The translations under genes were made by a program, and so were the position numbers. This document shows positions 36,901-58,812 of a DNA stretch of 64,000 nt, in pieces; within the stretch, counting starts at the first letter, position 1, and each line of letters opens with the position of its first letter. The notes beneath the pieces were generated by a model. The model ran no database searches, was not told where the DNA came from, and worked only from the letters and a program-made list of their open reading frames with translations. Source of the stretch: Desulfobacteraceae bacterium (GTDB lineage: Bacteria; Desulfobacterota; Desulfobacteria; Desulfobacterales; JAABRJ01); assembly GCA_022340425.1 (NCBI GenBank), contig JAJDNY010000135.1, forward strand, positions 2,806 through 66,805, written 5' to 3'.

Positions 36901-37283
36901 ATCACGCCACCGTATCGGGTGAAGCTTCTGCCGGCATGAAGATTCTTGAGGGTGGCGATCCGCATGGCGCCGTATTCGATTTCCAGATCGACGTAAACCG
37001 AGGGGTTGCAGATGATAAAATTAAGCGGCTCCAGACGGAAGGGATCGAAAATCTGATCGTACTCCAGCGGGACGATGACAAACCGTTTGCCGGGTATTTG
37101 GCTGGAGAGGTAGTCCGCAGTGGGGGACCATTTTTCCAAGCAGCGATCGACGCCGCGTTTGGCCAGCACGCCGATCAGGACCTGCTGCGGGGTCTCTTCG
37201 CCGCGGGCGCCTGGAGCCGAAACAAATGTCGCTGCCAGAAGGAGAAAACCGATGAGGAGGGTTGTGCAACGCCGTCTGTTCAT
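33909..37283 (-). CDS. Hybrid sensor histidine kinase (periplasmic PhnD-like binding domain, TM, HisKA, HATPase_c, 2x REC, Hpt)
   Basis: Signal peptide plus a periplasmic PBP-like domain. H-box FLANMSHEIRTPMNG. Two receiver domains (VLVVDDC..., VLLAEDNPTN...). C-terminal Hpt (LAHSIKGSAANIGA). Confidence 0.85.
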   Translation of the reverse strand: MNRRRCTTLLIGFLLLAATFVSAPGARGEETPQQVLIGVLAKRGVDRCLEKWSPTADYLSSQIPGKRFVIVPLEYDQIFDPFRLEPLNFIICNPSVYVDLEIEYGAMRIATLKNLHAGRSFTRYGGVIFTRQERSDIRRLEDLKGKSFMAVEEHSLGGWHAAWRELAARGIDPRRDLKNFHFAGTHDAVVLAVRDGLSDAGTVRTDTLERMQTENKIDLDDFFIIPVDGVTHENLPFVASTRLYPEWPIAKMGRTSDELGVAVAIALLQITLDNPAAVAGRYAGWTIPLNYQDVHDLLRELKIGPYRDLGKITFADVLKKYWYWLELIAAGFLILAGFTVTIMKLNRRLKTSHFRLEAEVGERRLVEKRLIQARDQAEAATRAKSEFLANMSHEIRTPMNGVIAAAELALSEKLPERAAHYLEIIHTSAYSLLGIINDILDFSKIEAEKMALEARPFMLDEILDNVVDVFHNKVAENRIELLVDIDPGVPRTLVGDPLRLQQILTNLVSNSVKFTDKGGVILVGLVPAETTEERVFLKFFVKDTGIGIAPEYLPLLFQSFSQADASSTRKYQGTGLGLAICKQLVQMMGGTIWVESELGKGSTFYFTAGFERCAGPPPPKFVPPADIQGLNVLVVDDCNDSLVIMQKMLESFGFAVQTADSAEEALERLGAEPGAEGPFDLVLMDWKMPGMDGIAAARRIRRDLKRDTVIILMTAFEDQSVRNAAQREGINGFLAKPIYQSELFNAVMDAFGKTAAKSETTRTRFTTRASIYKERLRGFRVLLAEDNPTNREIATAVLESAGIQVETAANGREAVDAVQAGAFEAVLMDIQMPEMDGFEATRAIRAIPAVGQIPIIAMTAHAMKGDEEKCLAAGMDGYVSKPINQDRLFHTLWRTIKRPATQLACPLPKPVPAPDASAAAPPPSAGPLPDSLPGIEVRKTLETLSIDPATFRRILIGFAEHNAATAAALEDLRAGGDHDALRQLAHSIKGSAANIGATRLSTAARELEKTLAAGQTPDPVTLSALTDTVGTHLAEVLAGIATISPAPAAAGGEGPAADPAERQAKLDGLAEALQLADPETIPPRFAAARAYLPAELAAELAASIAAYEYDKALERLRSLPAEAS

Positions 37284-38389
37284 TCTTGCCGTTTTCCTTC
37301 CAGGCGCTTTTCTTCCAACTGGCCGGCGCTGCGGCGCTCGGATGGTTCAATCCTGAAGCCTTCCTTCTGAAGAAGCTCCAGGCAGGCGTCGACCGCATCG
37401 GGCGTGTAGCGCACGCCGCGGTGCGTGGTGATTTCCTCCAGGGCCACGTCCAGGCCGCGGGCCGGTCGGTAGGGGCGGAAGGAACTGCCGGCTTCTACGA
37501 CGTCGGAGACGGTCAGGATGGTGGCCTCGCGCAGAATCTGGTCGCCTTTCAAGCCCCGGGGGTAGCCCGAGCCGTCCAGCCGTTCGTGATGTTGGTGGAC
37601 GATTTCCGCCAGGGGCCAGGGGGCCGGAATGTTTTGGAGGATCTCGAAGCCCACCTGGGGATGCAGCTTGATCAACTCCATCTCCACGTCCAGCAGCCGG
37701 CCGGGGCGGTTGAGGATCGAGGTCGGAATGCGGATTTTACCGATATCGTGCAGAATCCCGGCAAAGCGGATGGCCTGGATCTGTTCCTGGGAGAGCGCCA
37801 GCTTTTCGGCGATGGCGCAGGCCAGGTGCGCCACCCGCTGCTGGTGGCCGGCGGTATATGGGTCGCGCATTTCAAGGGCGAAGGCCATGGTTTTGACCGT
37901 GGCGTTGAGCATTTCCTGAAGTTCGGCGGTTTTTTCGTTGACCTTTTTTTCCAGCACGACGTTCTGGTTGCTGAGATCCCGGCGCATCTGCCGGAGGGTC
38001 AGGTGGGTGCGCACCCGGGCCTTGACCTCCGCGGCGTGAAACGGTTTGGTGACATAGTCGACCCCGCCGACTTCGAAGCCGTGGGTCTTGTGACCCGGTT
38101 CGTCCAGGGCGGTGATGAAGATCACGGGGATTTCGCTGGTTTCCGGGTCCTGCTGCAAGCGGCCGCAGACTTCGTAGCCGTTCATCTCCGGCATCATGAT
38201 ATCCAGCAGGATCAGGTCCGGGTGGTGGCGTGCGGCGTACTCCAGGGCCTTGGGTCCGTTTTTGGCGATCCCCAGACGGTAGTCCTCCTTGAGGGTGTTC
38301 ACCAGCAGGTCGATATTGGTGGCGTTGTCGTCAACGATCAGCACCAGGGAATCACGGTTCTGCAAGATCTTCTCCTTCGCTGGTTTCAA
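37280..38389 (-). CDS. Response regulator with HD-GYP output domain (c-di-GMP phosphodiesterase type)
   Basis: REC (LIVDDNATN...DLILLDIMMPEMNG) plus HD-GYP (HDIGKIRIP ... HHERLDGSGYPRGL). Start is uncertain: a TTG at 38365, 6 nt after AAGGAG, is an alternative. The stop overlaps the next gene's ATG. Confidence 0.9.
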   Translation of the reverse strand: MKPAKEKILQNRDSLVLIVDDNATNIDLLVNTLKEDYRLGIAKNGPKALEYAARHHPDLILLDIMMPEMNGYEVCGRLQQDPETSEIPVIFITALDEPGHKTHGFEVGGVDYVTKPFHAAEVKARVRTHLTLRQMRRDLSNQNVVLEKKVNEKTAELQEMLNATVKTMAFALEMRDPYTAGHQQRVAHLACAIAEKLALSQEQIQAIRFAGILHDIGKIRIPTSILNRPGRLLDVEMELIKLHPQVGFEILQNIPAPWPLAEIVHQHHERLDGSGYPRGLKGDQILREATILTVSDVVEAGSSFRPYRPARGLDVALEEITTHRGVRYTPDAVDACLELLQKEGFRIEPSERRSAGQLEEKRLEGKRQE

Positions 38390-41300
38390 GCGCGGTCAGG
38401 TCCGCCGCGGCGGCCCGCAGGACCACCAGGGCGCGGTCGTATTCATAGGCAGTGATGCAGTCGTCCAGTTCATGCCAGGTGTCGGGGTCCAGATGTTCGT
38501 GCAGGGCGTTGAGGGCGTGCCGGATGGCCTGTGGGTCGGCGTTTTCGAGGCCTTCCTGGATCGCGGCGAGCAACGGTCGCAGCACGGCCGGATCGCAGGT
38601 TCGGCCGGATACCTCGGCCGTCTCCGCTTCCGTGGGATGCGCCAGGCTCTCCAGGGACCGGTGCACCTGGTCGAAGGCCGCCTGGAGGCGTTTGAAGCGC
38701 GCACCGAAATCTGCGGCGTCGCTTGCCGGGTCGGCCGCCGCGGTTTCCAGTTCGCGGGCGGCTGCCGCCAATTCAGCGGCGCCGATGGCCGCCGCGCTGC
38801 CCCGCAGGGCATGGGCGTTCTGGCGCAGGGCCGGCCGGTCTTCAGCGTCCAGGGCGGCTTCGATGCGGGTGGCGTTTTCAGCACTGTCGCGCGCAAAACG
38901 CTGCAGGATGCCGCGGAAAGTTGCGGCATCCAGGCCCAGTGCACTTCGGGCCGCGCCGATCTGCAGACCGGGCAACCAGTCCGGCAGGGCGCCCGCCCCC
39001 GGGCGTTGGGTCCCTGGGAGGCGCCCTGAAGGGCCGCTGCGGCCTTTCAGGAGCTTTCCCAGAACGGTGTAGAGGGTGTCGCGGCTGACCGGTTTGGCGA
39101 TGTAGGCGTTCATCCCGGCCGCAAGACAGCGCTCCTCGTCGCCCTTGAGGGCATGGGCGGTCATGGCCACGATGGGCAATCCGGCGTGGCGCCGGTCCTG
39201 GCGGATGCGGGAGGTGGCCTCCAGGCCGTCCATGACCGGCATCTGAACGTCCATCAGGACGGCGTCGAAGCGCCTGCGGCTGACGGCGGCAACGGCCTGG
39301 CGGCCGTCCGGGGCGATTTCCACGATGGCCCCGGCCTCCTCCAGGACCGCGCGCGCGATTTCCTGGCTGGTGGGGGTGTCTTCGGCCACCAGGATGTGCG
39401 CACCCTCCAGCAGGCTTTCGTCCGCTGCGGGCGGGCTTGGGGCGGCAAGGCGATCGCCGCTGTCGGGTTCCCCGCAGAGGGTCAGGATGGCGTTGAGCAG
39501 CAGGGTGGGGTAGACCGGCTTGGCGACGAAGCCGTTGATGCCGGCGGCCATTGCAGCGCTGCGGTCGTTGTTGCGGTCATAGGCCGCCAGCAGCAGCAGC
39601 GGCACCGGGGGGGCGATTTCGGTGCGGATCCGGCGGGCGGTGGCAAGACCGTCCATCCCCGGCATTTTCTGATCCAGCAGGACAAGGTCGAAGGGTTCGC
39701 CCGCTGCTGCCGCCGTTTGGAGCCGTTTTACGGCGTCCGGCCCGCAAGCGGCGGTCTCCACCTGCAGGCCCCAGGCGCTGGCCGTGGTTTTCAGTGCCGC
39801 CAGGACTGCCGGGCAGTCATCCACCAGCAGCAGGCGCAGGCCGGCGAGCGCCCGCGGCAGCCCGGCGGAGGCCACCGCAAGGCGCTGTTTGAAACGGGCC
39901 GTGAAGTGAAAGACGCTGCCCGCCCCCGGGGTGCTCTCGACCCCGATGGTGCCCCCCATGATTTTAACCAACTGCCGGCAGATGCTGAGTCCCAGTCCGG
40001 TGCCGCCGTATTTGCGGGTGATCGAGGCGTCCGCCTGGGTGAAGGGGTTGAACAGGGCGCGGCGGTATTCGGGGGCGATGCCCACCCCGGTGTCCCGAAC
40101 ATGAAACTGCAGCACATCGGGCTCGCCTTCAGTCGAACCGACGTCCAGTTCGACCACCCCGCCTTTCTCGGTGAACTTAATGGCGTTGTCCAGAAGGTTC
40201 TTGAGGACCTGCTGCAGGCGCAGGGCGTCGCCGACCAGCTCGGTGGGGGTCCCGGGCTGGATGGCCACGACCAGTTCCAGCTCTTTTTCGGCCACCTTGC
40301 TCAGAAACATGCCGGTGACGCCATCCAGGGCGTTTTCGAGGTTGAACGGGCCGGCCTCCAGGTCCAGCTTGCCGGCCTCGATCTTGGAGAAGTCCAGGAT
40401 GTCGTTGATGATGCCCAGCAGCGAAATCGCCGAACTGTGGATGATCTTCAGGAAATGGGCGGTCTTGGGGGAAAGCGCGTCGTTCAGGGCCAGTTCCGCC
40501 GCCGCGATGACGCCGTTCATGGGGGTGCGGATCTCATGGCTCATGTTGGCCAGAAAGTCGCTCTTGGCGCGGGTGGCGGCCTCCGCGGTTTCCTTTGCGG
40601 TCAGTAGTTCGCGGTTGGCGGCCTGCAGTTCGGCGGTGCGGTCGGCCACTCGCTGCTCCATGTCGCGATAAGCCTCCTGCAGGGCGGCCTCGGAGCGCTT
40701 GCGCAGGGAGATGTCCTGCAGAAATCCCTCGATCAGCAGAAGGCCGCCGTCGGCGGCGCGCACCGCCCGCGCCCGGATGGCGGTCCAGACGGGGCTGCCG
40801 TCCCGGCGCCTGAGCTGGCACTCGAAGTCGGTGACGACGCCTTCGCTGGTCAGGCGCGCCATCAGGGTCTCATGGTCGGCGGGGGTGACGTAGACCGCTT
40901 TGCCCAGCCTTTCCAGGGCGTCGATCAGCTCGGCGGGCGAGCCGTAGCCGAGAATTGTCGCCATCGCGGGGCTGGCGCTGATCATCTGTCCATCGGGGGT
41001 CACCTGGAATATGCCTTCGGGGGCGTTTTCGAATATGCTGCGGTATTTTGCCTCGCTTTCCGCCAGGGCCGCCTCGGTTTTCTCCTGCTCGAGGATACGC
41101 AGCTCAAGCGCCTTGCTGTACTCCTGAAGCTCGGCGGCGTGGTTGGTCAGCAGGTTTTCCTTTTCACGATAATAATCAAGCTTGGCGTAAAGCTCCTCGG
41201 GGGAAATGCGCAGGCTGGCGAGAACTTCGGTGTAGACTTCGCTGAGTTCCACGGACTCCTGGGGCGTGAAGACCGCCGAGCTGGTGAGGGCCTTGTGGGC

Positions 41301-43145
41301 GGCGGGGGCGCCGATGGCGCCTGCCAGAGATTTTTCCACCTCGCTGTGGAGCTTGATGAGATCGATGATGGTGATCTGCGCTTGCCCTTCCAGGCGGCAG
41401 GCCGCCAGGCAGCGGGCGAGAATCGATTGGGCTTCGGTTTCCTCCATGTAGCGCTGGAGGACCTTTTCGATTTCCAGGCGTTTGGCCGCCAGGTCGATGC
41501 TGGCTGTGTGGCGCTCCCGGTCAGGGGGCAGGCCCGCGTCCGGGCCTTCGCCGGTAAAGGCCAGCGCCAGCCGCTTTTCGCTGGGGCCCTGCTCGCGCCA
41601 GAGCGACACCAGCACGTAGGCCCCGAGATTGAAAAGGATGGACCAGAAAAGCGTGTGGGAGAGCGCCGGCAGTCCTCGCAGACCGAAGAGACTCTCGGGG
41701 TTGAGGGCCGCAAGCCCCCATGGCCCGTTTTCCAGGATGCCGGGCGAAAACCAGCCGACTCGGATCAGGGCCGGCAGCAGCAGAGTGTAGAGCCAGGTCG
41801 CGAACCCCGCGCTCAGCCCGGCCAGTGCGCCCCATTTGTTGGCCTGGCGCCAGAACATGCCGCCCACGATGGCCGGGGCGAACTGGAAGACCGCCGCAAA
41901 TGAGATCATGCCGATATTGGCCAGCATGAAGGTTTGGCCGATCAAACGCTCGAAGCCGTGGCTCAGGATCAGCACCAGCCCTACGGCCGTCCACTTGCAG
42001 CGCAGCAGGTGGCGCCGCAAAAAACCCAGCCAGGGCACCCAGCGGACCAGCGGCAGCAGCAGGTGGTTGGTGAGCATCGTGGAGAGGGTGACCGAACTGA
42101 TCATGATCATGCCGGTGGCGGCCGAAAAACCGCCGATAAAGACCAGCATCACCATCCAGGGTTTGCCGTGATCGCGTGGCAGATCCAGAACGAAGGTGTC
42201 GGCCCCCATGGCCGGCAGGCCCTGCAGCAGGCCCGCGGCGGCAATCGGCAGAACAAAGAGGTTGATCAGCAGCATGTAGACCGGAAAGATCCACATCGCC
42301 GAGGAGATAAAATCCGGGTTTGGGTTTTCCACCACCGCCACGTGAAATTGGCGGGGCAGAAACAGGCTGGCGGACATGGCCAGCACGATGTAGGTGGCCC
42401 ACAACAGGTAGGGCGAGGCGGCGCGGCCGCTGAGGGCGAACAGGCTGTGATGGGGGCTCTCCGCCAGCCGTTGGAAAAGGTCACCGAAGCCGTCGTAGAG
42501 AAAATAGGTCACGAAAACCCCCGCCACAAGGAGGCTTGCCAGCTTGACGCCGCATTCCACCGCCAGGGCCATCACCATCCCGTCGTGGCGCTCGGTGGGG
42601 TCCAGCCGCCGAACCCCGAAAATGATGGTAAAGAGGATCATCAGCGCCACCACGATGGGGCCCACGTGGCCGCCGATCCAGGCGGAAAATCCCTGGCCCG
42701 GGGAGGTGATCAGGGCAAAGGTGCTGATGATCGCCTTGAGCTGCAGCGAAACGTAGGGGATGGTCGCAAACAGGGCCAGCAGGGTGGCCAGTGCGGCCAG
42801 GGTTTCGGATTTGTCGTAGCGGGCCGAAATGAAGTCCGCGATGCTGGTGATGTGGTGATGGGATTTGATCAGCGCCATCCGCCGCAGCACCTTCCACCAG
42901 AGGATGATGCCCAGGGTGGGCCCCAGGTAGACTGTGAGAAAGAGCAGCCCCGAGGAGGCCGCGATGCCGACGCTGCCATAGTAGGTCCAGGCGGTGCAGT
43001 AGACCGCCAGCGAGAGGGCGTAGACCCAGGGGTTGTTGGCGGGACTTCTTCCGGCTCTGGCGCAGCGCTCGGCCCACAGGGCCACCAGGAAAAGGGCCCC
43101 GGCGTAGAGCAGAAATACGAGCATGGCGACCAGCGGATCGAACAT
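38352..43145 (-). CDS. Hybrid sensor kinase with N-terminal sodium:solute symporter (SSF) domain (CbrA-like), PAS, HisKA, HATPase_c, 2x REC, Hpt
   Basis: About 520 aa of SSF-type polytopic membrane domain, then PAS (YRSIFENAPEGIFQ), H-box FLANMSHEIRTPMNG, two REC domains, and Hpt (NAHALRGSAAAIGA). Start moved to the ATG at 43145 (MFDPLVAMLVFLLYAG...); the 117 residues upstream in the track ORF are low-complexity. Confidence 0.85.
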   Translation of the reverse strand: MFDPLVAMLVFLLYAGALFLVALWAERCARAGRSPANNPWVYALSLAVYCTAWTYYGSVGIAASSGLLFLTVYLGPTLGIILWWKVLRRMALIKSHHHITSIADFISARYDKSETLAALATLLALFATIPYVSLQLKAIISTFALITSPGQGFSAWIGGHVGPIVVALMILFTIIFGVRRLDPTERHDGMVMALAVECGVKLASLLVAGVFVTYFLYDGFGDLFQRLAESPHHSLFALSGRAASPYLLWATYIVLAMSASLFLPRQFHVAVVENPNPDFISSAMWIFPVYMLLINLFVLPIAAAGLLQGLPAMGADTFVLDLPRDHGKPWMVMLVFIGGFSAATGMIMISSVTLSTMLTNHLLLPLVRWVPWLGFLRRHLLRCKWTAVGLVLILSHGFERLIGQTFMLANIGMISFAAVFQFAPAIVGGMFWRQANKWGALAGLSAGFATWLYTLLLPALIRVGWFSPGILENGPWGLAALNPESLFGLRGLPALSHTLFWSILFNLGAYVLVSLWREQGPSEKRLALAFTGEGPDAGLPPDRERHTASIDLAAKRLEIEKVLQRYMEETEAQSILARCLAACRLEGQAQITIIDLIKLHSEVEKSLAGAIGAPAAHKALTSSAVFTPQESVELSEVYTEVLASLRISPEELYAKLDYYREKENLLTNHAAELQEYSKALELRILEQEKTEAALAESEAKYRSIFENAPEGIFQVTPDGQMISASPAMATILGYGSPAELIDALERLGKAVYVTPADHETLMARLTSEGVVTDFECQLRRRDGSPVWTAIRARAVRAADGGLLLIEGFLQDISLRKRSEAALQEAYRDMEQRVADRTAELQAANRELLTAKETAEAATRAKSDFLANMSHEIRTPMNGVIAAAELALNDALSPKTAHFLKIIHSSAISLLGIINDILDFSKIEAGKLDLEAGPFNLENALDGVTGMFLSKVAEKELELVVAIQPGTPTELVGDALRLQQVLKNLLDNAIKFTEKGGVVELDVGSTEGEPDVLQFHVRDTGVGIAPEYRRALFNPFTQADASITRKYGGTGLGLSICRQLVKIMGGTIGVESTPGAGSVFHFTARFKQRLAVASAGLPRALAGLRLLLVDDCPAVLAALKTTASAWGLQVETAACGPDAVKRLQTAAAAGEPFDLVLLDQKMPGMDGLATARRIRTEIAPPVPLLLLAAYDRNNDRSAAMAAGINGFVAKPVYPTLLLNAILTLCGEPDSGDRLAAPSPPAADESLLEGAHILVAEDTPTSQEIARAVLEEAGAIVEIAPDGRQAVAAVSRRRFDAVLMDVQMPVMDGLEATSRIRQDRRHAGLPIVAMTAHALKGDEERCLAAGMNAYIAKPVSRDTLYTVLGKLLKGRSGPSGRLPGTQRPGAGALPDWLPGLQIGAARSALGLDAATFRGILQRFARDSAENATRIEAALDAEDRPALRQNAHALRGSAAAIGAAELAAAARELETAAADPASDAADFGARFKRLQAAFDQVHRSLESLAHPTEAETAEVSGRTCDPAVLRPLLAAIQEGLENADPQAIRHALNALHEHLDPDTWHELDDCITAYEYDRALVVLRAAAADLTALETSEGEDLAEP

Positions 43146-43147
43146 GG

Positions 43148-43384
43148 CTATTGCCTCGGCACCGGTGGGGGGTCGCGGTCGGCGGGCGACCGCCGGCAGT
43201 GGCGGGCGATCAGCGCCAAGACCACCACCAGGGCGGACCATGTCAGGTAGAGGTAGAGAAAACCGACCGGCGGCCGGGTCTTCTCGAGGATGGTCAGCAG
43301 GGGCCAGTTGAAGAGCAGGAAAAAAAGGCAGAAAAGAAAAATATGGAACTCCGTCTTGCCCAGCAGGTCCTTGAGGCGCGCCAT
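43148..43384 (-). CDS. Small two-TM membrane protein translationally coupled to the SSF-kinase
   Basis: MARLKDLLGKTEFHIFLFCLFFLLFNWPLL...FLYLYLTWSALVVVLALIA (78 aa). GGAGG RBS. Its TAG stop lies 2 nt before the kinase ATG. The arrangement is reminiscent of the small DUF-type membrane proteins that precede SSF transporters. Confidence 0.5.
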   Translation of the reverse strand: MARLKDLLGKTEFHIFLFCLFFLLFNWPLLTILEKTRPPVGFLYLYLTWSALVVVLALIARHCRRSPADRDPPPVPRQ

Positions 43385-43464
43385 AAAACCTCCTCCCGGC
43401 GGCGTCGGCCACCGTCGGTGCCGGATGGGTGCGACGGCGGTGAATTCCGGCATCCGCTCGAAAA

Positions 43465-43493
43465 GAATATGAAAAACGGCTCAGCCTGTCAAG
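43465..43493 (-). promoter_or_regulatory. Sigma-70-type promoter candidate for the signalling operon
   Basis: Minus strand: TTGACA (43488-43493), 17-nt spacer, TATTCT (43465-43470), about 80 nt upstream of the small membrane protein ATG. Confidence 0.4.
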
Positions 43494-43499
43494 CACAAC

Positions 43500-50775: not shown

Positions 50776-50909
50776 ACCTTTTTTGCTGGGAGATTTAAGC
50801 CGGGGCGCAACCCGGGCGCCCATTGGTTCGAAACAGGCCGCAGCGGCCATCCCTGGCTTTTCGGGGTCACCTGCAGCAGGTGCACGCGCCGTTCGGCCCG
50901 GGTGTGAGC

Positions 50910-52742
50910 ATGGATTTCAAAGACACCAATGATATGTCATCCCCGCAGCGAACCCGGCCGGAAATTCCGCCGGATGCAGGCGCCGACTGCGCTGCGTCCG
51001 TTTTTGCGGCCTCCCATCCGCTTGCCGAGCGCATCAAAGAACTCAATTGCCTTTACGGCATCTCAAATCTGCTGGAAAATCACGGGGTATCCCTTTCCTG
51101 GATCATGCAGCGGGCCGTTGAACTAATACCGGCGGCCTGGCAGTATCCCCAAAACGCCTGTGCGCGAATCCTTCTGGACGGCCAGGAATACACCTCCCGA
51201 AATTTCAAGACCACCCCTTGGCGTCAAAGTACCACGATCATACTCAACGACCAGCCCGTCGGGGGAGTGGATGTTTTCTACCTTGAGGCGCCTCCTGAAA
51301 ACCCTGCGGGCCCGTTTCTGGAGGAGGAGCAAAGGCTGCTTAGGGCCATCGGGGAACGCTTGAGTAAAGTACTCTGGCTGAAGCGCTCAGAAGAAGCCCT
51401 GAAAGAAAGCGAAGCCCGCTACAGGGTGCTCACCGAGCAGGTCGCCGAAGGGGTCGCGCTGGTTCAGGATGGGCGCTTCCGCTATGTCAACCCGGCGTTT
51501 TGCGGGATGTTCAACGTCCCGCTGGCGGAGGCCCTGATCGGTGGGCTTGTGAGCGCCCCGGCAGTCGGTGCAGCCGATGACATTGCCTGCCTGTACGCCG
51601 GCTCTGCGGCAGATGACCCCACGACCCGGGTGGAGAACGTGCACCGCTTGGCCCGGGATGGCGCCACTTGCTGGATTCAGGTCTGCCACAGTCCCATCAC
51701 CCTGAAAGGCCTGCCGGCACTGCTCTCCACATTCAAGGACATCACCGAGATCAAGGAGCAGCAGGTGGCCGCAGAGAAGATGGCCGACCTGTTGGACCGC
51801 GAAAACCGCGTGTTGCGCGCCTCGTTGAGCGATCGCTACCGGCTTGGAGAAATCCTGGGCCGCTCGGCGGCCATGCAAACGGTCTACGAGCTGATTCTGA
51901 AAGCGGCCGCAACCGATGCCAGTGTCGCAATTTTCGGCGAATCCGGGACCGGCAAAGAGCTTGTGGCCCGTGCGATCCACGACCACAGCCACCGCAAAAA
52001 GGCGCGCTTTGTGGCGGTCAACTGTGGGGCCATCCAGGAGACCCTTTTCGAACGCGAATTTTTCGGCCATCGCAAGGGGGCCTTTTCAAGCGCCCACGCC
52101 GATTCCCCGGGCTACCTGGATATGGCCGCGGGCGGAACCCTGTTTCTCGATGAGGTCGGGGATCTGACCCCCGGTATGCAAGCCAAGCTCCTGCGGGCGA
52201 TCGAGGGCGGCGGCTATCGGCCGGTAGGCGGAACGGAGGCCATTTTGTCCGATTTCCGCATCATATCGGCCTCAAATGCCCCACTGGCCGACAGGGTTGT
52301 CAAAGGCGAGATGCGCGATGATTTTTTCTACCGGATCCAGGTGATCCAGATCCAGCTGCCCCCCTTGCGCGAGCGGCGCCAGGACATCCCCCTGCTGGTG
52401 GAGCATTTTTTGCGCAAGATGCGGCCGCCCGCTGATTCCATCAGGATCGCCGGACCCATCATGGACGCCTTGATGGACTACGACTGGCCCGGCAATGTCC
52501 GCGAGCTGCGCAACGTCCTGCAGCGTTACGCCACCCTCGGCCAGCTTGAGTTTCTCTCCCCGGGCCAACAGCCTTCAACGGCCCCCATCACAGCCGCCCT
52601 TGATCTGCGCGAAGCCGTCCAGCAGCTGGAAAAGTCCTTGATTTTACGAGCTCTTCGAGAAGCAGGCGGGAACCGCACCAAAGCCGCCAGATTACTGGGC
52701 ATATCCCGCCGCGCCCTTTTCCGCAAAATAACCGCCCCATGA
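50910..52742 (+). CDS. Sigma-54-dependent transcriptional activator (N-terminal GAF-like + PAS sensory domains, AAA+, Fis-type HTH)
   Basis: [15 protein letters not shown] Walker [16 protein letters not shown] (GAFTGA-loop variant), [10 protein letters not shown], and a C-terminal HTH ([15 protein letters not shown]). Start taken at the ATG at 50910. Confidence 0.9.
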
Positions 52743-52927
52743 GTGCCTGAACCGCCCCTATCGGGGCGAAAACGCTCATATCCTAAAAAAGTAATTAATT
52801 TAGATTGTTGTAAGTTAAACCGCCACTCAAAGGCGGGCGCTTAATTCCCAGCGGTCAGCCTGTGGATTTTGTTTAAAAACAAAAAATTTCATTTATTTCC
52901 AATTAGTTATCACCTTATTGGGCAGGG

Positions 52928-52943
52928 TGGTATTTTTTTTGCT
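52928..52943 (+). promoter_or_regulatory. Candidate sigma-54 (-24/-12) promoter TGGTAT-N6-TTGCT
   Basis: TGGTATTTTTTTTGCT has the invariant GG-N10-GC spacing. It lies 185 nt after the activator stop and about 85 nt upstream of the first small ORF. Confidence 0.35.
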
Positions 52944-53028
52944 GTAATCTGCGGCAAAACCGCAAAAGACGCCGAGTCCGGTCATCGGTGTATAACCTGA
53001 AATAATCGCATTTCTGGAGGTGCTTTCG

Positions 53029-53262
53029 ATGAGACTCGTGAAAAACAAAGCTTCCGGTAAATTTTTTATCGTTCTCGACGAGAATGATGCCCGGGAAACC
53101 GATTTCATGCTGATCACCCCCGAGGGAAGGGTCAAACAACTCGAGCAGCATCTGTTTGAGTCTTTGGATGACGTTGACCCCGCAGAGGACCGCTGCATCC
53201 AGCGCTACACAGCGGCCCAGTTGAAGAGATATCGCCGCTATCTCAAAGAGGAAAGCCTTTGA
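53029..53262 (+). CDS. Hypothetical small protein (77 aa)
   Basis: ATG at 53029, 8 nt after CTGGAGG. MRLVKNKASGKFFIVLDENDARETDFMLITPEGRVKQLE... I recognise no family. Confidence 0.4.
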   Translation: MRLVKNKASGKFFIVLDENDARETDFMLITPEGRVKQLEQHLFESLDDVDPAEDRCIQRYTAAQLKRYRRYLKEESL

Positions 53263-53329
53263 AACCGAGCTTTCGCGGACAGCGGATGATTCGCGGATGC
53301 AATTGAGCAGACCGGAGAGGAGATTTGTC

Positions 53330-53743
53330 ATGTCGGATGATCCTTTTGGAAATCTTCAGGATTGGGGAGAGGCCCTCGAACTTCTCGATGAGCTGTCACG
53401 AAACGGCCGTTTGGCGGAATGCCAGCGCGGTTTGGTGCGGATACTGAACTACAAGGGCAACTGGCGCCTTCGGGAGGAAGTCCTGAAGCGCTTGGATCAA
53501 ATTGAAGCACCGACCGATGAACTGATTGGACAAGTTCTCAGCATCCTCGCAGATGACAACACCTACTACGAGGCAAGAATTATGGCGAGCGGCGCCCTGA
53601 TGCAATTTTTAAAAAACGGTGAAAGCGAGGTGCGGCCGGAGTTGAATCTGAAAAGTCGAAAAATAATTGAAAAGCTTTGCAAAACACCCCAGCCGCCGAT
53701 TTTTGAAAAAGCCCTCCAAGAATGCAACCAGGCGTTGGCCTGA
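53330..53743 (+). CDS. Hypothetical all-helical (HEAT/ARM-repeat-like) protein (137 aa)
   Basis: ATG at 53330 after GGAGAGGAG. Helical-repeat-like sequence (…VLSILADDNTYYEARIMASGALMQFL…). Family uncertain. Confidence 0.45.
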   Translation: MSDDPFGNLQDWGEALELLDELSRNGRLAECQRGLVRILNYKGNWRLREEVLKRLDQIEAPTDELIGQVLSILADDNTYYEARIMASGALMQFLKNGESEVRPELNLKSRKIIEKLCKTPQPPIFEKALQECNQALA

Positions 53744-53799
53744 GCGGCTTCAGGGTGAAGTCAAACGCCTGCTCTTGATATCAAAAAAGGAACACTAGC

Positions 53800-54036
53800 A
53801 TGATGACCAATACGATTAGAAACTTTGGTTTATGCTTTACCTGCAATCACCGCTGGGCTTGTCTGTCTCTGAGAAACAGCCTTCGGGAGGGTATTCCGAT
53901 TTTGCACTGCGAACAGTTTGATGATGGTGCTGCCGGTGGGGGCGATTTTCGCCTCCGGAAAAAACCGAGAACATGGTTTTTGGAAAATAACGCGACCACA
54001 CCAGCGCCTTTCTTCAAATCTGGGCTGGAAGCTTGA
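53800..54036 (+). CDS. Hypothetical small Cys/His-containing protein (78 aa)
   Basis: MMTNTIRNFGLCFTCNHRWACLSLRNSLREGIPILHCEQFDD... has a possible metal-binding CxxCxH...C...HC pattern. It ends 14 nt before the pntAA ATG. Weak RBS. Confidence 0.4.
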   Translation: MMTNTIRNFGLCFTCNHRWACLSLRNSLREGIPILHCEQFDDGAAGGGDFRLRKKPRTWFLENNATTPAPFFKSGLEA

Positions 54037-54050
54037 GGAAAGGAGGCACC

Positions 54051-55220
54051 ATGCGAATCGGAATACCCAGAGAAATACTGCCGGAAGAAAAAAGAGTCGC
54101 CGCCACCCCCGAGACGGTCCTAAAGTATATCCAGATGGGTTTCAGCGTGGCGGTCGAATCCGCAGCGGGGGAGGGCGTCGGAAGAAGCGATGAAGAATAC
54201 CAAAATGCGGGGGCGGTCATAATCTCCGATGTTCAAAAACTTTTTTCCGATTCGGACATCATCTTAAAAGTCAAACAACCGGTCTTCAACGATGCCATTG
54301 ATCGGCACGAAGCCCGGATGCTCAAAGACGGCAGTATTCTGATCACCTTTCTGCACCCGGCAGCGCATGGTAATCACGACATGGTCCGCGTGCTGCGGGA
54401 TAAGAACATCACCGCCTTCACCATGGATGGCATTCCGCGCATTCCCAGGGCCCAGAGAATGGATGCCTTGTCTTCGATGAGCACCGTCACCGGCTACAAG
54501 GCTGTGCTGGTGGCCGCCAATCGCCTGCCCAAGTTCGTGCCCATGATCACCACCGCCATCGGCACCGTCAAGCCGGCCCAATTCTTGGTCGTCGGCGCGG
54601 GGGTTGTCGGCCTTCAGGCGATTGCCACCGCCAAACGGTTGGGAGGGGTCGTCAAGGCCCTGGATATTCGCAAAGAAGCCTGCACCCAGGCCGAAAGTCT
54701 GGGGGCCAAAGTGGCGCCATTCGATATTCCCCAAGAACTGGCGGTGGGCAAAGGCGGGTATGCAAAGTCCCTGGAAGCCGAATGGCTGGAAATCGAGCGC
54801 AATGTGATGAAGCCCTTGCTAGAGGAGGCTGACGTTGTGGTCCTCAGCGCCCTGGTGCCAGGTGAGGTCGCACCGATTCTGATCACCGCGGAAATGGTGC
54901 GGGTGATGAAGCGGGATGCGGTGATCATGGATATCGCCATCGATCAGGGGGGCAACTGTGCGGCCACGGAGCCTGGGGAGTTTGTTCAAAAAGAAGGCGT
55001 CCACATTTGCGGCATCCAGAACATTCCGGGCAGAATGGCCGTCCATGCCAGTTGGTTGTACGCCAACAACATGTACCACTATGTGGCCAATCTTTTCAAA
55101 AACGGAGTGGGCACCCTCGATTTGGATGACGAAATCGCCAAGGAATCCCTTGTGACCTACCAGGGTAAAATTGTTTTTGAAGGCGCCCTTAAGGCGATGG
55201 GTTTTCATTACGTGCAGTGA
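54051..55220 (+). CDS. pntAA: NAD(P) transhydrogenase alpha subunit part 1 (dI, NAD(H)-binding)
   Basis: MRIGIPREILPEEKRVAATPE..., Rossmann motif VVGAGVVGLQAIATAKRLGG. AGGAGG RBS before the ATG at 54051. Alanine-dehydrogenase/PNT family. Confidence 0.9.
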   Translation: MRIGIPREILPEEKRVAATPETVLKYIQMGFSVAVESAAGEGVGRSDEEYQNAGAVIISDVQKLFSDSDIILKVKQPVFNDAIDRHEARMLKDGSILITFLHPAAHGNHDMVRVLRDKNITAFTMDGIPRIPRAQRMDALSSMSTVTGYKAVLVAANRLPKFVPMITTAIGTVKPAQFLVVGAGVVGLQAIATAKRLGGVVKALDIRKEACTQAESLGAKVAPFDIPQELAVGKGGYAKSLEAEWLEIERNVMKPLLEEADVVVLSALVPGEVAPILITAEMVRVMKRDAVIMDIAIDQGGNCAATEPGEFVQKEGVHICGIQNIPGRMAVHASWLYANNMYHYVANLFKNGVGTLDLDDEIAKESLVTYQGKIVFEGALKAMGFHYVQ

Positions 55221-55240
55221 TGCCTGTCGGGAGGCTTTGT

Positions 55241-55540
55241 ATGGAAAATCTTTTGTTTTTGAGCGGGGTTTTTCTTTTCTACTTTTTTGTCGCCTATGTC
55301 CTGATCTCCCGCGTTCCAACCCTCCTGCACACCCCCTTGATGTCCATGACGAATGCTGTTTCCGCCGTTACCCTGCTGGGCGCCCTGATTCTGTTTTCGG
55401 TTCCGACGACCGCGGTTGAAAGGATTCTTGCCGGCCTCGCCATTGTGGCCGCGGCCTTCAATGTCGTCGGCGGGTTTGCCATTACGGATCGCATGCTCAG
55501 GCTCTTCAAAGAAAAAGAGGCCGAGACCGAGACCCGATGA
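55241..55540 (+). CDS. pntAB: NAD(P) transhydrogenase alpha subunit part 2 (membrane dII-a)
   Basis: About 99-aa 3-TM protein with HTPLMSMTNAVSAV motif. GGGAGG RBS. Its stop overlaps the pntB ATG. Confidence 0.85.
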   Translation: MENLLFLSGVFLFYFFVAYVLISRVPTLLHTPLMSMTNAVSAVTLLGALILFSVPTTAVERILAGLAIVAAAFNVVGGFAITDRMLRLFKEKEAETETR

Positions 55541-57534
55541 CCGAGACCCGTTACGTCCTCGATCTGGTTCTGGACCTGGTGGTGATCGCCTTTCTGGCTA
55601 TCGGGATCTGGCAATTTCGGACGCCCCGTGGCGCTAAATTCGGCAACCTGACGGCGGCATTTGCGCTGTTGTGCGCATTTGTCCTGGTTTTGTGGCGCAG
55701 CGGAGTTGTCGACCCGGCAACGGTGGTGATCTCGCTGCTGATCGGCAGCGCAGGCGGATATGCCGTGGCCAGGGCGGTCAGCATGATTCAGATTCCCGCC
55801 ATGGTGGCGGTGCAAAATGGCGCCGGCGGCATGGCGGCCGTTTTGGTGTCACTGGTGGAACTGATGCGCCGGGCCGATTCCCTGGAATTTGTGAACGAAT
55901 TTTCGGGGGTCCTGGGATTGGCCATCGGTGCCCTGACCTTCAGCGGCAGCATGGTGGCAGCGGCCAAACTGGCGGGTAAGATGCGGCAGCCCCCCCAGGT
56001 GCTGCCCGCTCACGGCGTGCTGGTGCTCGCCACGCTGGTCGCCATGGCGGCCATCGGCCTGTGGTCGCTCAATGTGCCGATTGTGGTCAGATTGTACCTG
56101 CTGATTTTCCAGATCGTACTTGCGGCCGTCTTTGGGGTACTGTTTTCGATTCGCATCGGCGGCGCGGACATGCCGGTCTTGATTTCATTTTTAAACGCCA
56201 ACACGGGGTTGGCGGCGGCGCTCTGCGGGATGGTGATCGGAAATCAGCTGCTGATCGCCTTCGGCGCCACCGTGGCGGCCTCCGGCTCGATCCTAACCCA
56301 CCTGATGTGCCGGGCGATGAATCGCAATCTTTTGCGAATATTCGTTCCCGACAGCCGTCAACCGAAAATCGTTGCCCAAGGTCGAACCGAACCAGCGGCG
56401 GCCGGTTTGCCAAACCCACCGGTTTCCCCCGCCGACAGTCAGCGCGCCGACGGCTCAAAGCTGGAGCAAGCGCTTGCCGTTCTGAGCGATGCCAAAAAAA
56501 TCATCATTGTCCCGGGCTACGGCATGGCGCTCGCCCAGGCCCAAGGGGAGTTGGTGGCCTTGGCCAATAAATTGGCCGAGATGGGCAAGCGGGTCAGATA
56601 CGCGATTCACCCGGTGGCGGGGAGAATGCCCGGACACATGAATGTGCTGCTGGCCGAAGCCGGGGTCGACTACGATCTTCTGGTGGAGATGGAGGAGATC
56701 AACCCCGAGTTCCAGGCCACCGATCTGGCGCTGGTCGTCGGGGCCTGCGACGTGGTCAACCCGGCGGCCATCGATGTGCCGGGCACCCCCATCACGGGCA
56801 TGCCGATCCTGCTGACCCATGAAGCGCGACATGTCACTTGCTGCAATTACGATGACCAGCCCGGCTATTCGGGGGTCAAAAACCCGCTCTATGAGAAACC
56901 CCACACGCTCCTGCTGACGGGTGATGCCAAGGAAACCCTCCACCGCATTTTGGAGGCCCTGACAGATGAAAAGCCCGTGATTGTTCACCCCGCTGCGGTG
57001 GCCGCCGGGGATGTTCTGGCCGCCGCGTGCGACGCCCTCTTATACGCCAAAACGGTGGTGATCGTTCCCGGTTACGGGATGGCCCTGGCCCAGGCGCAAT
57101 TCAAAGTCGCGGCATTGGCGGCGATGCTTGCAAAGCGGGGCGCCGCTGTCAAATTCGCCATCCACCCCGTGGCGGGGCGGATGCCCGGCCACATGAACGT
57201 CATCCTGGCCGAGGCCGAGGTGGATTACGAAAACCTGCTGGAAATGGACACCGTCAACCCTATGTTTGAAGAAACCGACGTGGCGCTGATCTTCGGGGCC
57301 TGCGACGTGGTTAACCCCGCGGCCATCGATGTGCCGGGTACCCCGATTTCCGGCATGCCGATCCTGATGGCGCACGCGGCCAAGACCGTTATCGTCTGCA
57401 ACTTGGATTCGAAGCCCGGTTATTCGGGCGTTGACAATCCCCTTTACGAAAGCCCAAAAACCATTCTGCTCTTGGGTGATGCCCAAAAGACGGCCAGTAA
57501 GCTGATCTCTGCGCTGGAGGCGCTGCATGCCTGA
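55537..57534 (+). CDS. pntB: NAD(P) transhydrogenase beta subunit with tandemly duplicated NADP(H)-binding dIII domain
   Basis: 665 aa. Membrane dII (aa 1 to ~270), then two complete dIII copies (aa ~308-475 and ~491-665). Each copy carries VPGYGMALAQAQ, HPVAGRMPGHMNV(L/I)LAEA, GACDVVNPAA and GMPIL. Confidence 0.9.
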   Translation: MTETRYVLDLVLDLVVIAFLAIGIWQFRTPRGAKFGNLTAAFALLCAFVLVLWRSGVVDPATVVISLLIGSAGGYAVARAVSMIQIPAMVAVQNGAGGMAAVLVSLVELMRRADSLEFVNEFSGVLGLAIGALTFSGSMVAAAKLAGKMRQPPQVLPAHGVLVLATLVAMAAIGLWSLNVPIVVRLYLLIFQIVLAAVFGVLFSIRIGGADMPVLISFLNANTGLAAALCGMVIGNQLLIAFGATVAASGSILTHLMCRAMNRNLLRIFVPDSRQPKIVAQGRTEPAAAGLPNPPVSPADSQRADGSKLEQALAVLSDAKKIIIVPGYGMALAQAQGELVALANKLAEMGKRVRYAIHPVAGRMPGHMNVLLAEAGVDYDLLVEMEEINPEFQATDLALVVGACDVVNPAAIDVPGTPITGMPILLTHEARHVTCCNYDDQPGYSGVKNPLYEKPHTLLLTGDAKETLHRILEALTDEKPVIVHPAAVAAGDVLAAACDALLYAKTVVIVPGYGMALAQAQFKVAALAAMLAKRGAAVKFAIHPVAGRMPGHMNVILAEAEVDYENLLEMDTVNPMFEETDVALIFGACDVVNPAAIDVPGTPISGMPILMAHAAKTVIVCNLDSKPGYSGVDNPLYESPKTILLLGDAQKTASKLISALEALHA

Positions 57535-57699: not shown

Positions 57700-58812
57700 T
57701 CACAACAGATCATCGATGGGGGTGTGTTCAAGGCCGAACGCGTCAGCTACGGCCTCATAGGTAACCTTACCGTCGATAACATTGGCGCCCAGCTTGATGT
57801 CGCTGTTCTTCTGCATGGCCGCCTTCCAGCCCTTGTTGGCGATTTCCACCGCATAGGGCAGGGTGGCATTGGTCAGTGCCATGGTCGAGGTCCGTGGCAC
57901 CGCCCCGGGCATGTTGGCCACGCAGTAATGGACCACGCCCTCAACCGTGAAGATCGGGTTGCCGTGGGTCGTGGCCCTGGAGGTTTCAAAGCAGCCGCCC
58001 TGGTCGATGGCGACATCCACCATGACGGTGCCCGGCTTCATGGTTTTGAGCATCTCGCGGGTGATCAACTTGGGCGCCTTGGCGCCGGGAATCAACACCG
58101 CACCGATGATGACATCGGCCTGCCTGATGAGTTCCCGCAGCGTCGCCGGGCTGGAAAAAAGGCCGAAACAATTGGCCGGCATCACGTCACTCAGATACCG
58201 CAAGCGGTCGAGGTTGTTGTCCAGGACATACACCTTGGCGCCCAGACCGCAGGCCATCTTGGCGGCGTTGATGCCGACGATGCCGCCTCCGATGACCACC
58301 ACATTGCCCGGGTCCACGCCCGGCACGCCCCCCAGCAGCACGCCGTGGCCTCCCTGGGCCATTTCCAGATACTTGGCCCCCTGCTGTATGGCCATTCTGC
58401 CGGCCACCTCGCTCATGGGGGTCAACAGCGGCAGGGAGCGGTCCGGCTTTTGAATTGTTTCATAGGCGATGCAGACGGCCCTGCTCTGGATGAGGGCCTT
58501 GGTCAGCTCCTCCGCCGCCGCCAGATGCAGGTAGGTGAAGACGATCTGGCCTTCCCGGATCAGATCGTACTCGGCGGGCAGGGGTTCCTTGACATGCATC
58601 ACCATGTCGGATCTTTCAAATATTTCGCGGTTTGTCGCAATTATCTCCGCGCCGGACTTGAGATAGGTGGCGTCCTCGAAGCCGCTGCCCTTGCCGGCCC
58701 CCTTTTCCACCAACACCTTGTGGCCGTTGGTGATCATCACCTCGACCCCTGCCGGGGTCATGGACACGCGATTTTCTTCTGTCTTGATTTCTTTCAAAAT
58801 TCCGACGATCAT
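57700..58812 (-). CDS. ald: Alanine dehydrogenase
   Basis: MIVGILKEIKTEENRVSMTPAGV..., GGVPGV...VVVIGGGIVGINAA. 370 aa. Confidence 0.95.
   Translation of the reverse strand: MIVGILKEIKTEENRVSMTPAGVEVMITNGHKVLVEKGAGKGSGFEDATYLKSGAEIIATNREIFERSDMVMHVKEPLPAEYDLIREGQIVFTYLHLAAAEELTKALIQSRAVCIAYETIQKPDRSLPLLTPMSEVAGRMAIQQGAKYLEMAQGGHGVLLGGVPGVDPGNVVVIGGGIVGINAAKMACGLGAKVYVLDNNLDRLRYLSDVMPANCFGLFSSPATLRELIRQADVIIGAVLIPGAKAPKLITREMLKTMKPGTVMVDVAIDQGGCFETSRATTHGNPIFTVEGVVHYCVANMPGAVPRTSTMALTNATLPYAVEIANKGWKAAMQKNSDIKLGANVIDGKVTYEAVADAFGLEHTPIDDLL

Follow-up and report, generated by a model that had tools for sequence, protein, structure and literature searches.

How many nucleotide-binding heads does a proton-coupled transhydrogenase carry on each beta subunit? 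To our knowledge, every current mechanism of the enzyme takes it that a protomer has a single dI, a single dII and a single dIII, and that hydride transfer and proton gating are performed in alternation by the two dIII domains of the dimer. This one-each assumption is common to the binding-change, the 'division of labour' and the dIII-swivel models. The question is raised by the pntB gene (55537..57534, forward strand) in a 64,000-nucleotide stretch of contig JAJDNY010000135.1 from a Desulfobacteraceae bacterium, hereafter the window, where a dII membrane domain is followed by two tandem dIII domains in one polypeptide.

The window pntB is an intact open reading frame (ORF) of 665 amino acids (aa) whose match to the Pfam family PF02233 (PNTB) falls in two stretches and scores 710.5 bits, where the cutoff is 31.7, and its best matches in the PDB are 4o9u_B (E = 7e-84) and 9l76_C (E = 1e-80). 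With copy 1 as the query, phmmer places the dIII units at aa 308-475 and aa 493-660, with aa 308 lying at nucleotide 56458. An earlier note on this DNA, made from the sequence alone, had described two complete dIII copies where canonical PntB has one, and both parts of that description stand, as the PDB proteins of T. thermophilus (450 aa) and E. coli (462 aa) have one dIII each. The estimate by eye of ~60% identity between the copies is close to the BLASTP value (104/157 identical, 66%, E = 1e-80, gapless), and the four motifs that were quoted, namely VPGYGMALAQAQ, HPVAGRMPGHMNV, GACDVVNPAA and GMPIL, are found in copy 1 and in copy 2. Where a single C-terminal dIII per beta subunit (1:1:1) is expected, the window PntB has two, and the change in stoichiometry proposed in the note is correct for the encoded dIII:dII ratio.

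The domain layout is based on alignments and on an AlphaFold2 model built with 75 family sequences (mean predicted local distance difference test score, pLDDT, 73; predicted template modelling score 0.46). The dII domain spans aa 1-270 (55537..56346), with nine predicted transmembrane (TM) helices, H2-26 through H237-260, and in alignment to T. thermophilus and E. coli it keeps the GGADMPV and MCRAMNR coupling motifs. Downstream on the same strand are linker 1, the hinge that tethers dII to dIII-1 (aa 271-307, 56347..56457), dIII copy 1 (aa 308-475, 56458..56961), linker 2, which tethers dIII-1 to dIII-2 (aa 476-492, 56962..57012), and dIII copy 2 (aa 493-665, 57013..57531; 4j16_C, E = 4e-40). 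A Foldseek search with the model matches 4o9u and 9l76 and confirms the dII and dIII folds, with TM-scores to solved dIII structures of 0.79-0.88 (normalised by target length). Both linkers are of low confidence, with pLDDT < 50 at aa 271-304 and aa 478-490. The model fits an arrangement of folded domains on two disordered tethers, akin to beads on a string, in which the relative placement of the domains would not be fixed.

The duplication of dIII is old and real, and not a collapsed repeat, because the DNA of the two copies is only 46% identical at third codon positions (73% and 82% at the first and second, 67% overall), the longest in-register identical run is 20 nucleotides, and the synonymous divergence (dS) between the paralogous copies is ~1.3. 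The divergence at the nucleotide level and the old duplication had both been proposed in the earlier note. In addition, orthologues of the same length are present in independent assemblies at 98%, 89%, 88% and lower identity, with a counterpart for each copy, and the tandem-dIII architecture is also present in complete isolate genomes, for instance on the complete chromosome of Desulfosarcina widdelii (AP021875.1). Together, the DNA divergence, the orthologues in independent assemblies and the complete genomes rule out an assembly artefact.

Both copies are maintained by selection. Ratios of nonsynonymous to synonymous substitution (dN/dS), computed per region against an orthologue that is 84% identical (L001), are 0.14 for dII, 0.21 for dIII-1 and 0.15 for dIII-2, versus 0.97 for linker 1 and 0.87 for linker 2, and linker 1 is only 46% identical to that orthologue in amino acids. 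Copies 1 and 2 are thus under similar purifying selection, whereas the linkers evolve nearly neutrally. Across 80 proteins with two dIII, the alignment columns of copy 1 and copy 2 have mean conservation values of 0.816 and 0.813, respectively, and just one of 163 columns is conserved yet systematically different between the copies, this being E. coli position 384 (Leu versus Val). At 67 columns, copy 1, copy 2 and the units of proteins with three to five dIII have one residue in common that is at least 90% conserved, and 56 of these columns are identical to E. coli, including G314, Y315, H345, R350, D392, G430, Y431 and D450. With the exception of the clamp for the 2'-phosphate, both window copies keep every dinucleotide-binding and hydride-transfer residue shared with E. 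coli.

The window PntB is also not a singular oddity but a member of a large family, which went unmentioned in the earlier note. All of the 354 distinct relatives listed by the homologue searches carry two, three, four or five tandem dIII. Among the best 120 matches to the whole window PntB, 80 have two dIII, 22 have three and 18 have four, and the same listing holds one N-terminally truncated fragment with five; further searches list 119 more relatives (55 with two, 64 with three) and another 115 (109 with four and six full-length proteins of 1168-1234 aa with five). A scan of contigs with the inter-domain junction peptide of the window PntB finds 13 loci. Judged by the names given by the sequence sources, the carriers are from the Desulfobacterota (Desulfosarcina widdelii, D. 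variabilis, Desulforhopalus, Desulfopila, Desulfovibrio intestinalis), the Bacteroidales (Porphyromonas gingivicanis, levii, circumdentaria, bennonis, uenonis and cangingivalis, and Dysgonomonas), and the Bacillota (Dehalobacterium formicoaceticum, Anaerococcus, Alkalicella caledoniensis). The public family sequences bear the generic PntB name, apart from some that are misnamed. The PntBs with four dIII from Desulfovibrio metagenome-assembled genomes (P0002, P0003) are entered by their sources as 'NAD synthetase' and 'NAD-dependent protein deacylase sirtuin-5', probably because their DHS-like NAD-binding fold misled the annotation.

The history of copy number differs between lineages. In the group with two dIII, the nearest neighbour of each copy 1 is another protein's copy 1 (80/80), and the same holds for copy 2 (80/80), with a mean identity between the copies of one protein of 61%. 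In neighbour-joining (NJ) trees, which are simple trees without bootstrap support, window copies 1 and 2 pair with copies 1 and 2 of D. widdelii respectively, a Desulforhopalus protein with three dIII has two units of the copy-1 type and one of the copy-2 type, and the single dIII of a Desulfamplus protein falls in the copy-2 lineage. Elsewhere in the family, the copies of one protein group with each other, at 72-100% identity, which shows that duplication or gene conversion was recent. For instance, P0011, with at least five dIII, and P0397, with four, are 93% identical, implying a very recent change in copy number. From this within-protein clustering and from the P0011/P0397 pair, the number of dIII copies is evolutionarily labile, with repeated gains and losses. 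One to five near-identical copies look like a dosage or modular trait, not like a division of labour.

In every fully examined locus (the window and loci L014-L017), pntAA and pntAB lie directly upstream of the multi-dIII pntB. In the window, pntB comes third in the compact operon pntAA-pntAB-pntB, in which the stop codon of pntAB overlaps the start of pntB, and the adjacency and types of the genes are those of a three-subunit PntAA/PntAB/PntB enzyme of the Thermus/Rhodospirillum type. The pntAA gene (54033..55220, +), a 395-aa ORF with a likely start at M7 (54051), encodes alpha1, the soluble dI (PF05222, PF01262; 4izh_A, E = 3e-85), and pntAB (55217..55540, +), a 107-aa ORF, encodes alpha2, the four-TM part of dII (PF12769, 92.3 bits; 4o9p_C, E = 1e-18). 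Residues RAQRMDALSS, GAGVVG and ALDIR (the acidic end of beta-2) of pntAA align with T. thermophilus dI, and since they are retained, the window dI is a canonical NAD(H) site. The protonatable histidine of the channel is supplied by alpha2, where LLHTPLMS of the window aligns with ILHTPLMS of T. thermophilus, and the beta subunit has Asn at the position of E. coli H91. Judged from these residues, the proton-coupling apparatus looks intact and of the Thermus type.

The Thermus thermophilus transhydrogenase (4O9U, 4O93, 4J16) is accordingly the nearest solved relative, being the best PDB match for all three window subunits (alpha1 3e-85, alpha2 1e-18, beta 7e-84). It likewise consists of three polypeptides with a soluble dI and an alpha2 of ~100 aa, has the alpha2 His in (I/L)LHTPLMS, and has Asn instead of His at the beta position of E. 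coli H91. The beta subunits differ, however, in that of Thermus having one dIII, 450 aa and K-R-G in loop E, versus two dIII, 665 aa and N-Y-D/N-L-D in the window. E. coli PntAB (9L76, 2BRU) and mitochondrial NNT (6QTI) are built from the same dI, dII and dIII domain types, and their dIII motifs GYGMA, HPVAGR-PGHMNV, GA-D, NPAA, GMP-L, GY-G and NP- are common to the window. Unlike the window enzyme, with its split alpha, E. coli has a fused alpha and NNT is a single chain, and both have the channel His on beta (H91), a strict 1:1:1 ratio of dI:dII:dIII, and KRS. A precedent for domain rearrangement by gene fusion or fission is provided by the eukaryotic alpha-beta and beta-alpha NTH isoforms (PMC7614955), although there the domains are reordered with one of each, and a repeated dIII is not mentioned in that paper.

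Taken together, these features suggest that the window enzyme works as a proton-coupled transhydrogenase and belongs to a distinct clade of anaerobe PntBs, named here the N-x-D clade, with a beta subunit that bears two equivalent, catalytically competent and mobile dIII heads, a reading that we consider somewhat more probable than its negation. In the swivel model (PMC8551311), dIII docks face-up on dI when hydride is transferred, and face-down on dII when nucleotide is exchanged and protons are gated. Heads arranged in tandem on flexible tethers could alternate between the dI and dII stations, such that within one protomer one head would be at dI while its neighbour sits at dII. How many mobile, nucleotide-carrying heads there are for each proton channel would then depend on copy number. 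Extra heads might also recruit additional dI dimers, which is possible because dI is a free soluble subunit here.

A number of observations weigh against the two-headed transhydrogenase, one of which concerns loop E of dIII. Residues K424-R425-S426 (E. coli numbering) of this loop are the motif for the 2'-phosphate of NADP(H), and together with loop D they define the specificity for NADP over NAD (PMC9529548); R425 and T393 are among the NADP+ contacts in the E. coli cryo-EM paper. The solved dIII domains that were aligned have KRG (T. thermophilus, VIKRGQGKGFAG) or KRS (E. coli, VFKRSMNTGYAG; R. rubrum, FIKRSMASGYAG; ovine NNT, VMKRSLGVGYAA). Neither is present in the window copies, where copy 1 has N-Y-D (CCNYDDQPGYSG) and copy 2 has N-L-D (VCNLDSKPGYSG), and no KR is found in loop E of any family dIII unit examined. 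Lys or Arg at position 427 or 428 is found in 79-88% of units, including window copy 2 (SK), whereas window copy 1 (NYDDQ) has DQ at these positions and lacks the putative compensating basic residue. In addition, the window PntB scores 505.6 bits against NF006974, the NCBIfam equivalog for the beta subunit of Re/Si-specific NAD(P)+ transhydrogenase, below the curated cutoff of 689, and a literature search found no characterised member of the N-x-D clade. With respect to mechanism, the reach of the distal head to dII on a tether of ~13 residues is assumed, and distal heads without nucleotide exchange would support only 'cyclic' hydride exchange, with no kinetic benefit.

The loss of KRS does not look like decay. 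Every unit of the family has N-x-D. N-[F/Y/L]-D is present in almost all of the 303 units from the whole-PntB search, and in 302/302 and 463/466 units from the further searches, and it is part of a clade signature that comprises, relative to E. coli, F423C, K424N, S426D, T429P, T393V, L351M, S404T and F439Y. This strict conservation across the clade argues that N-x-D is a derived functional state. The earlier note had equated the loss of NADP(H)-binding residues with a degenerate spacer, an equation that fails for a replacement conserved throughout the clade, and the loss of KRS from both copies went unmentioned in it; the residues for dinucleotide binding and hydride transfer are indeed retained in each copy, while the 2'-phosphate motif is lost in both, and the name 'NADP(H)-binding' that the note gave to the two domains is provisional. 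Most likely, the bound nucleotide is still NADP(H), held by an altered site with N424, D426 and, in most units, Lys/Arg at 427/428.

The N-x-D loop is not limited to proteins with repeated heads. When the dII part alone is searched against 1.84 billion cluster representatives, its closest relatives include many single-dIII proteins with C-N-[L/F]-D (P0121, P0127, P0129, P0130, P0133), and PntBs of the KRS/KRG type rank only further down. By dII, such single-dIII members (for instance P0121 from Desulfamplus sp., 491 aa; P0129; P0133) are the closest relatives, at 48-59% identity, and they share the loop E C-N-[L/F]-D-x-[K/R]-P-G-Y-S and the loop D GACD with the window clade; they differ from the window PntB in having one dIII, and are likewise uncharacterised. 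In an NJ tree of dII only, 42 of the 43 N-x-D proteins group together, with the x1 to x5 forms interleaved, and strict monophyly fails by one outlier (P0154). When only the roughly complete representatives of the dII sample are counted, ~10 of 36 proteins with N-x-D have more than one dIII, as against ~1 of 20 of the KR type. The KR-type case is P0236, a PntB of the canonical KRS type whose second dIII is divergent, which means that duplication of dIII is not strictly confined to the N-x-D clade. N-x-D thus marks a broad clade of anaerobe PntBs, single-dIII members included, with one to five heads per beta subunit.

Other readings of the second dIII have to be set against these data. That it stems from a collapsed or mis-joined assembly repeat, or from a decaying pseudogene fusion, has practically no chance of being correct, as all that speaks for it is that a duplicated domain is odd a priori; against it stand the 67% DNA identity (46% at third positions) with no common run longer than 20 nucleotides, the intact reading frame, the purifying selection on both copies, and the equal-length orthologues and complete genomes already described. 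More substance attaches to the idea that the heads have separate duties, the proximal dIII being catalytic and the distal copy a nucleotide sensor, a regulator or a structural spacer. Only dIII-1 has a direct hinge to dII, the two copies have slightly different residues in loop E (DDQ in copy 1, SK in copy 2), and a few distant relatives have a degenerate or divergent second copy, namely P0156, whose second dIII is degenerate (LFNLAEDTGWA), and P0236. We nonetheless regard such specialisation as quite unlikely. The two copies are equally conserved (0.816 versus 0.813) and differ systematically in one column of 163, the dN/dS of dIII-2 (0.15) is not above that of dIII-1 (0.21), and copies within proteins of three to five dIII are 72-100% identical. 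Furthermore, because the one dIII of the Desulfamplus protein is of the copy-2 lineage, copy 2 can presumably work alone. The equal conservation, the dN/dS values and the structural model argue against both a degenerate spacer and a specialised sensor, and the suggestion in the earlier note that one copy acts as an NADP(H) sensor does not sit well with this similarity, or with relatives that have from one to five near-identical copies.

A switch of cofactor is harder to dismiss, although on balance it, too, seems improbable. Here, the ligand of the N-x-D heads would not be NADP(H) but NAD(H) or a different dinucleotide, and the invariant Asp 426 would recognise the free 2'/3'-diol, as happens in NAD-specific Rossmann sites. 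NADH/NADPH transhydrogenation would then not be what the complex does, and the tandem heads would have a different role, in hydride handling or coupled to protons. Consistent with such a switch, conservation of K424N and of S426D is at least 90%, F/Y/L is found in place of R425, both of the NADP+ contacts T393 and R425 are gone, and KR occurs in no unit of the family but in every solved dIII aligned. The acidic NYDDQ of window copy 1, with no basic residue, and the score below the NCBIfam equivalog cutoff point the same way. On the other hand, the dI encoded in the same operon is a canonical NAD(H) site, and an NAD/NAD enzyme would be thermodynamically pointless. The Lys/Arg at 427/428 in 79-88% of units could stand in for K424/R425, the motifs that contact nicotinamide and pyrophosphate are all unchanged, and the proton-coupling residues are kept. 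A further and doubtful proposal combines the switch with the repeats, such that the N-x-D clade would be a distinct transhydrogenase-like class with a switched cofactor and two to five heads acting together, for instance in a shuttle or hydride relay of several heads, through which each proton channel would work with more than one soluble dI dimer.

If the last proposal is true, many anaerobes, among them gut and oral Desulfovibrio, Porphyromonas, Dysgonomonas and Anaerococcus, would depart from the textbook 1:1:1 binding-change/swivel mechanism in chemistry as well as in stoichiometry. The natural series of one to five heads offers a test of whether head number limits turnover, of whether the proton channel gates heads that are not hinged to dII, and of how many dI dimers are engaged. 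The loss of KRS also matters for annotation, where pipelines give the name 'NAD(P) transhydrogenase subunit beta' to many anaerobe proteins, those of human-associated Desulfovibrio and Porphyromonas included, with consequences for metabolic models of NADPH supply. A search of the literature found no description of a PntB with repeated dIII or of an N-x-D loop, though an earlier mention in subscription journals is possible; it found nothing relevant on PntAB in sulfate reducers or Bacteroidales, and for K424/R425 mutants it found background only (PMC8551311).

The surroundings of the operon are partly conserved. Upstream of pntAA lies a gene for a conserved protein of unassigned function (53297..53743, +; ~137 aa from M12 at 53330) that has no Pfam or NCBIfam match. 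Homologues occupy the same position in D. widdelii (54%, L016 3617-4051) and in Desulforhopalus (44%, L017 3890-4321). None is found upstream of the Porphyromonas pnt operon, and the L001 contig ends before that region. As a universal partner the protein can be rejected, given its presence in only three Desulfobacterales loci and its absence from Porphyromonas; its role may be that of an accessory or regulatory partner limited to the lineage, and its gene is possibly part of the operon. A second small ORF, of 80 aa at 53020, has no homologue in D. widdelii.

In the same three Desulfobacterales loci (window, L016, L017), a PAS/sigma-54 enhancer-binding activator adjoins the pnt operon (50823..52742, + in the window; NCBIfam sigma-54 regulator models), with the gene for the ~137-aa protein sitting between the activator and pntAA. 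A -24/-12-like element, TGGTATTTTTTTTGCT, is present at 52928..52943 (+), 90 nucleotides upstream of the first small ORF, and is a lead only; across the window, the sigma-54 promoter consensus has fewer matches than in shuffles. The G+C content is 0.46-0.52 over 52750..54250, which comprises the regulatory region and the small ORFs, versus ~0.60-0.63 in flanking genes.

On the other side of the window operon, and convergent to it, is an alanine dehydrogenase gene (57700..58812, -). A large glutamate dehydrogenase of 1046 aa lies beside the D. widdelii pnt operon (L016 8746-11886), and an alanine racemase and an amino-acid permease lie beside that of Desulfovibrio intestinalis (L014 1588-4314). 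Such recurrent neighbours with roles in amino-acid redox reactions or transport may point to a link with amino-acid catabolism.

Elsewhere in the window, a 2320-aa ORF (24652..31614, -) has two ketoacyl-synthase domains, four FabA-like dehydratase domains and a weak acyltransferase match, and represents a PfaC-like subunit of a polyunsaturated fatty acid or polyketide-type synthase. Two hybrid histidine kinases of 1714 aa (38352..43496, -) and 1124 aa (33909..37283, -) have PAS, HisKA, HATPase, two receiver and Hpt domains, and the 1124-aa kinase carries a phosphonate-type periplasmic binding domain at its N-terminus.

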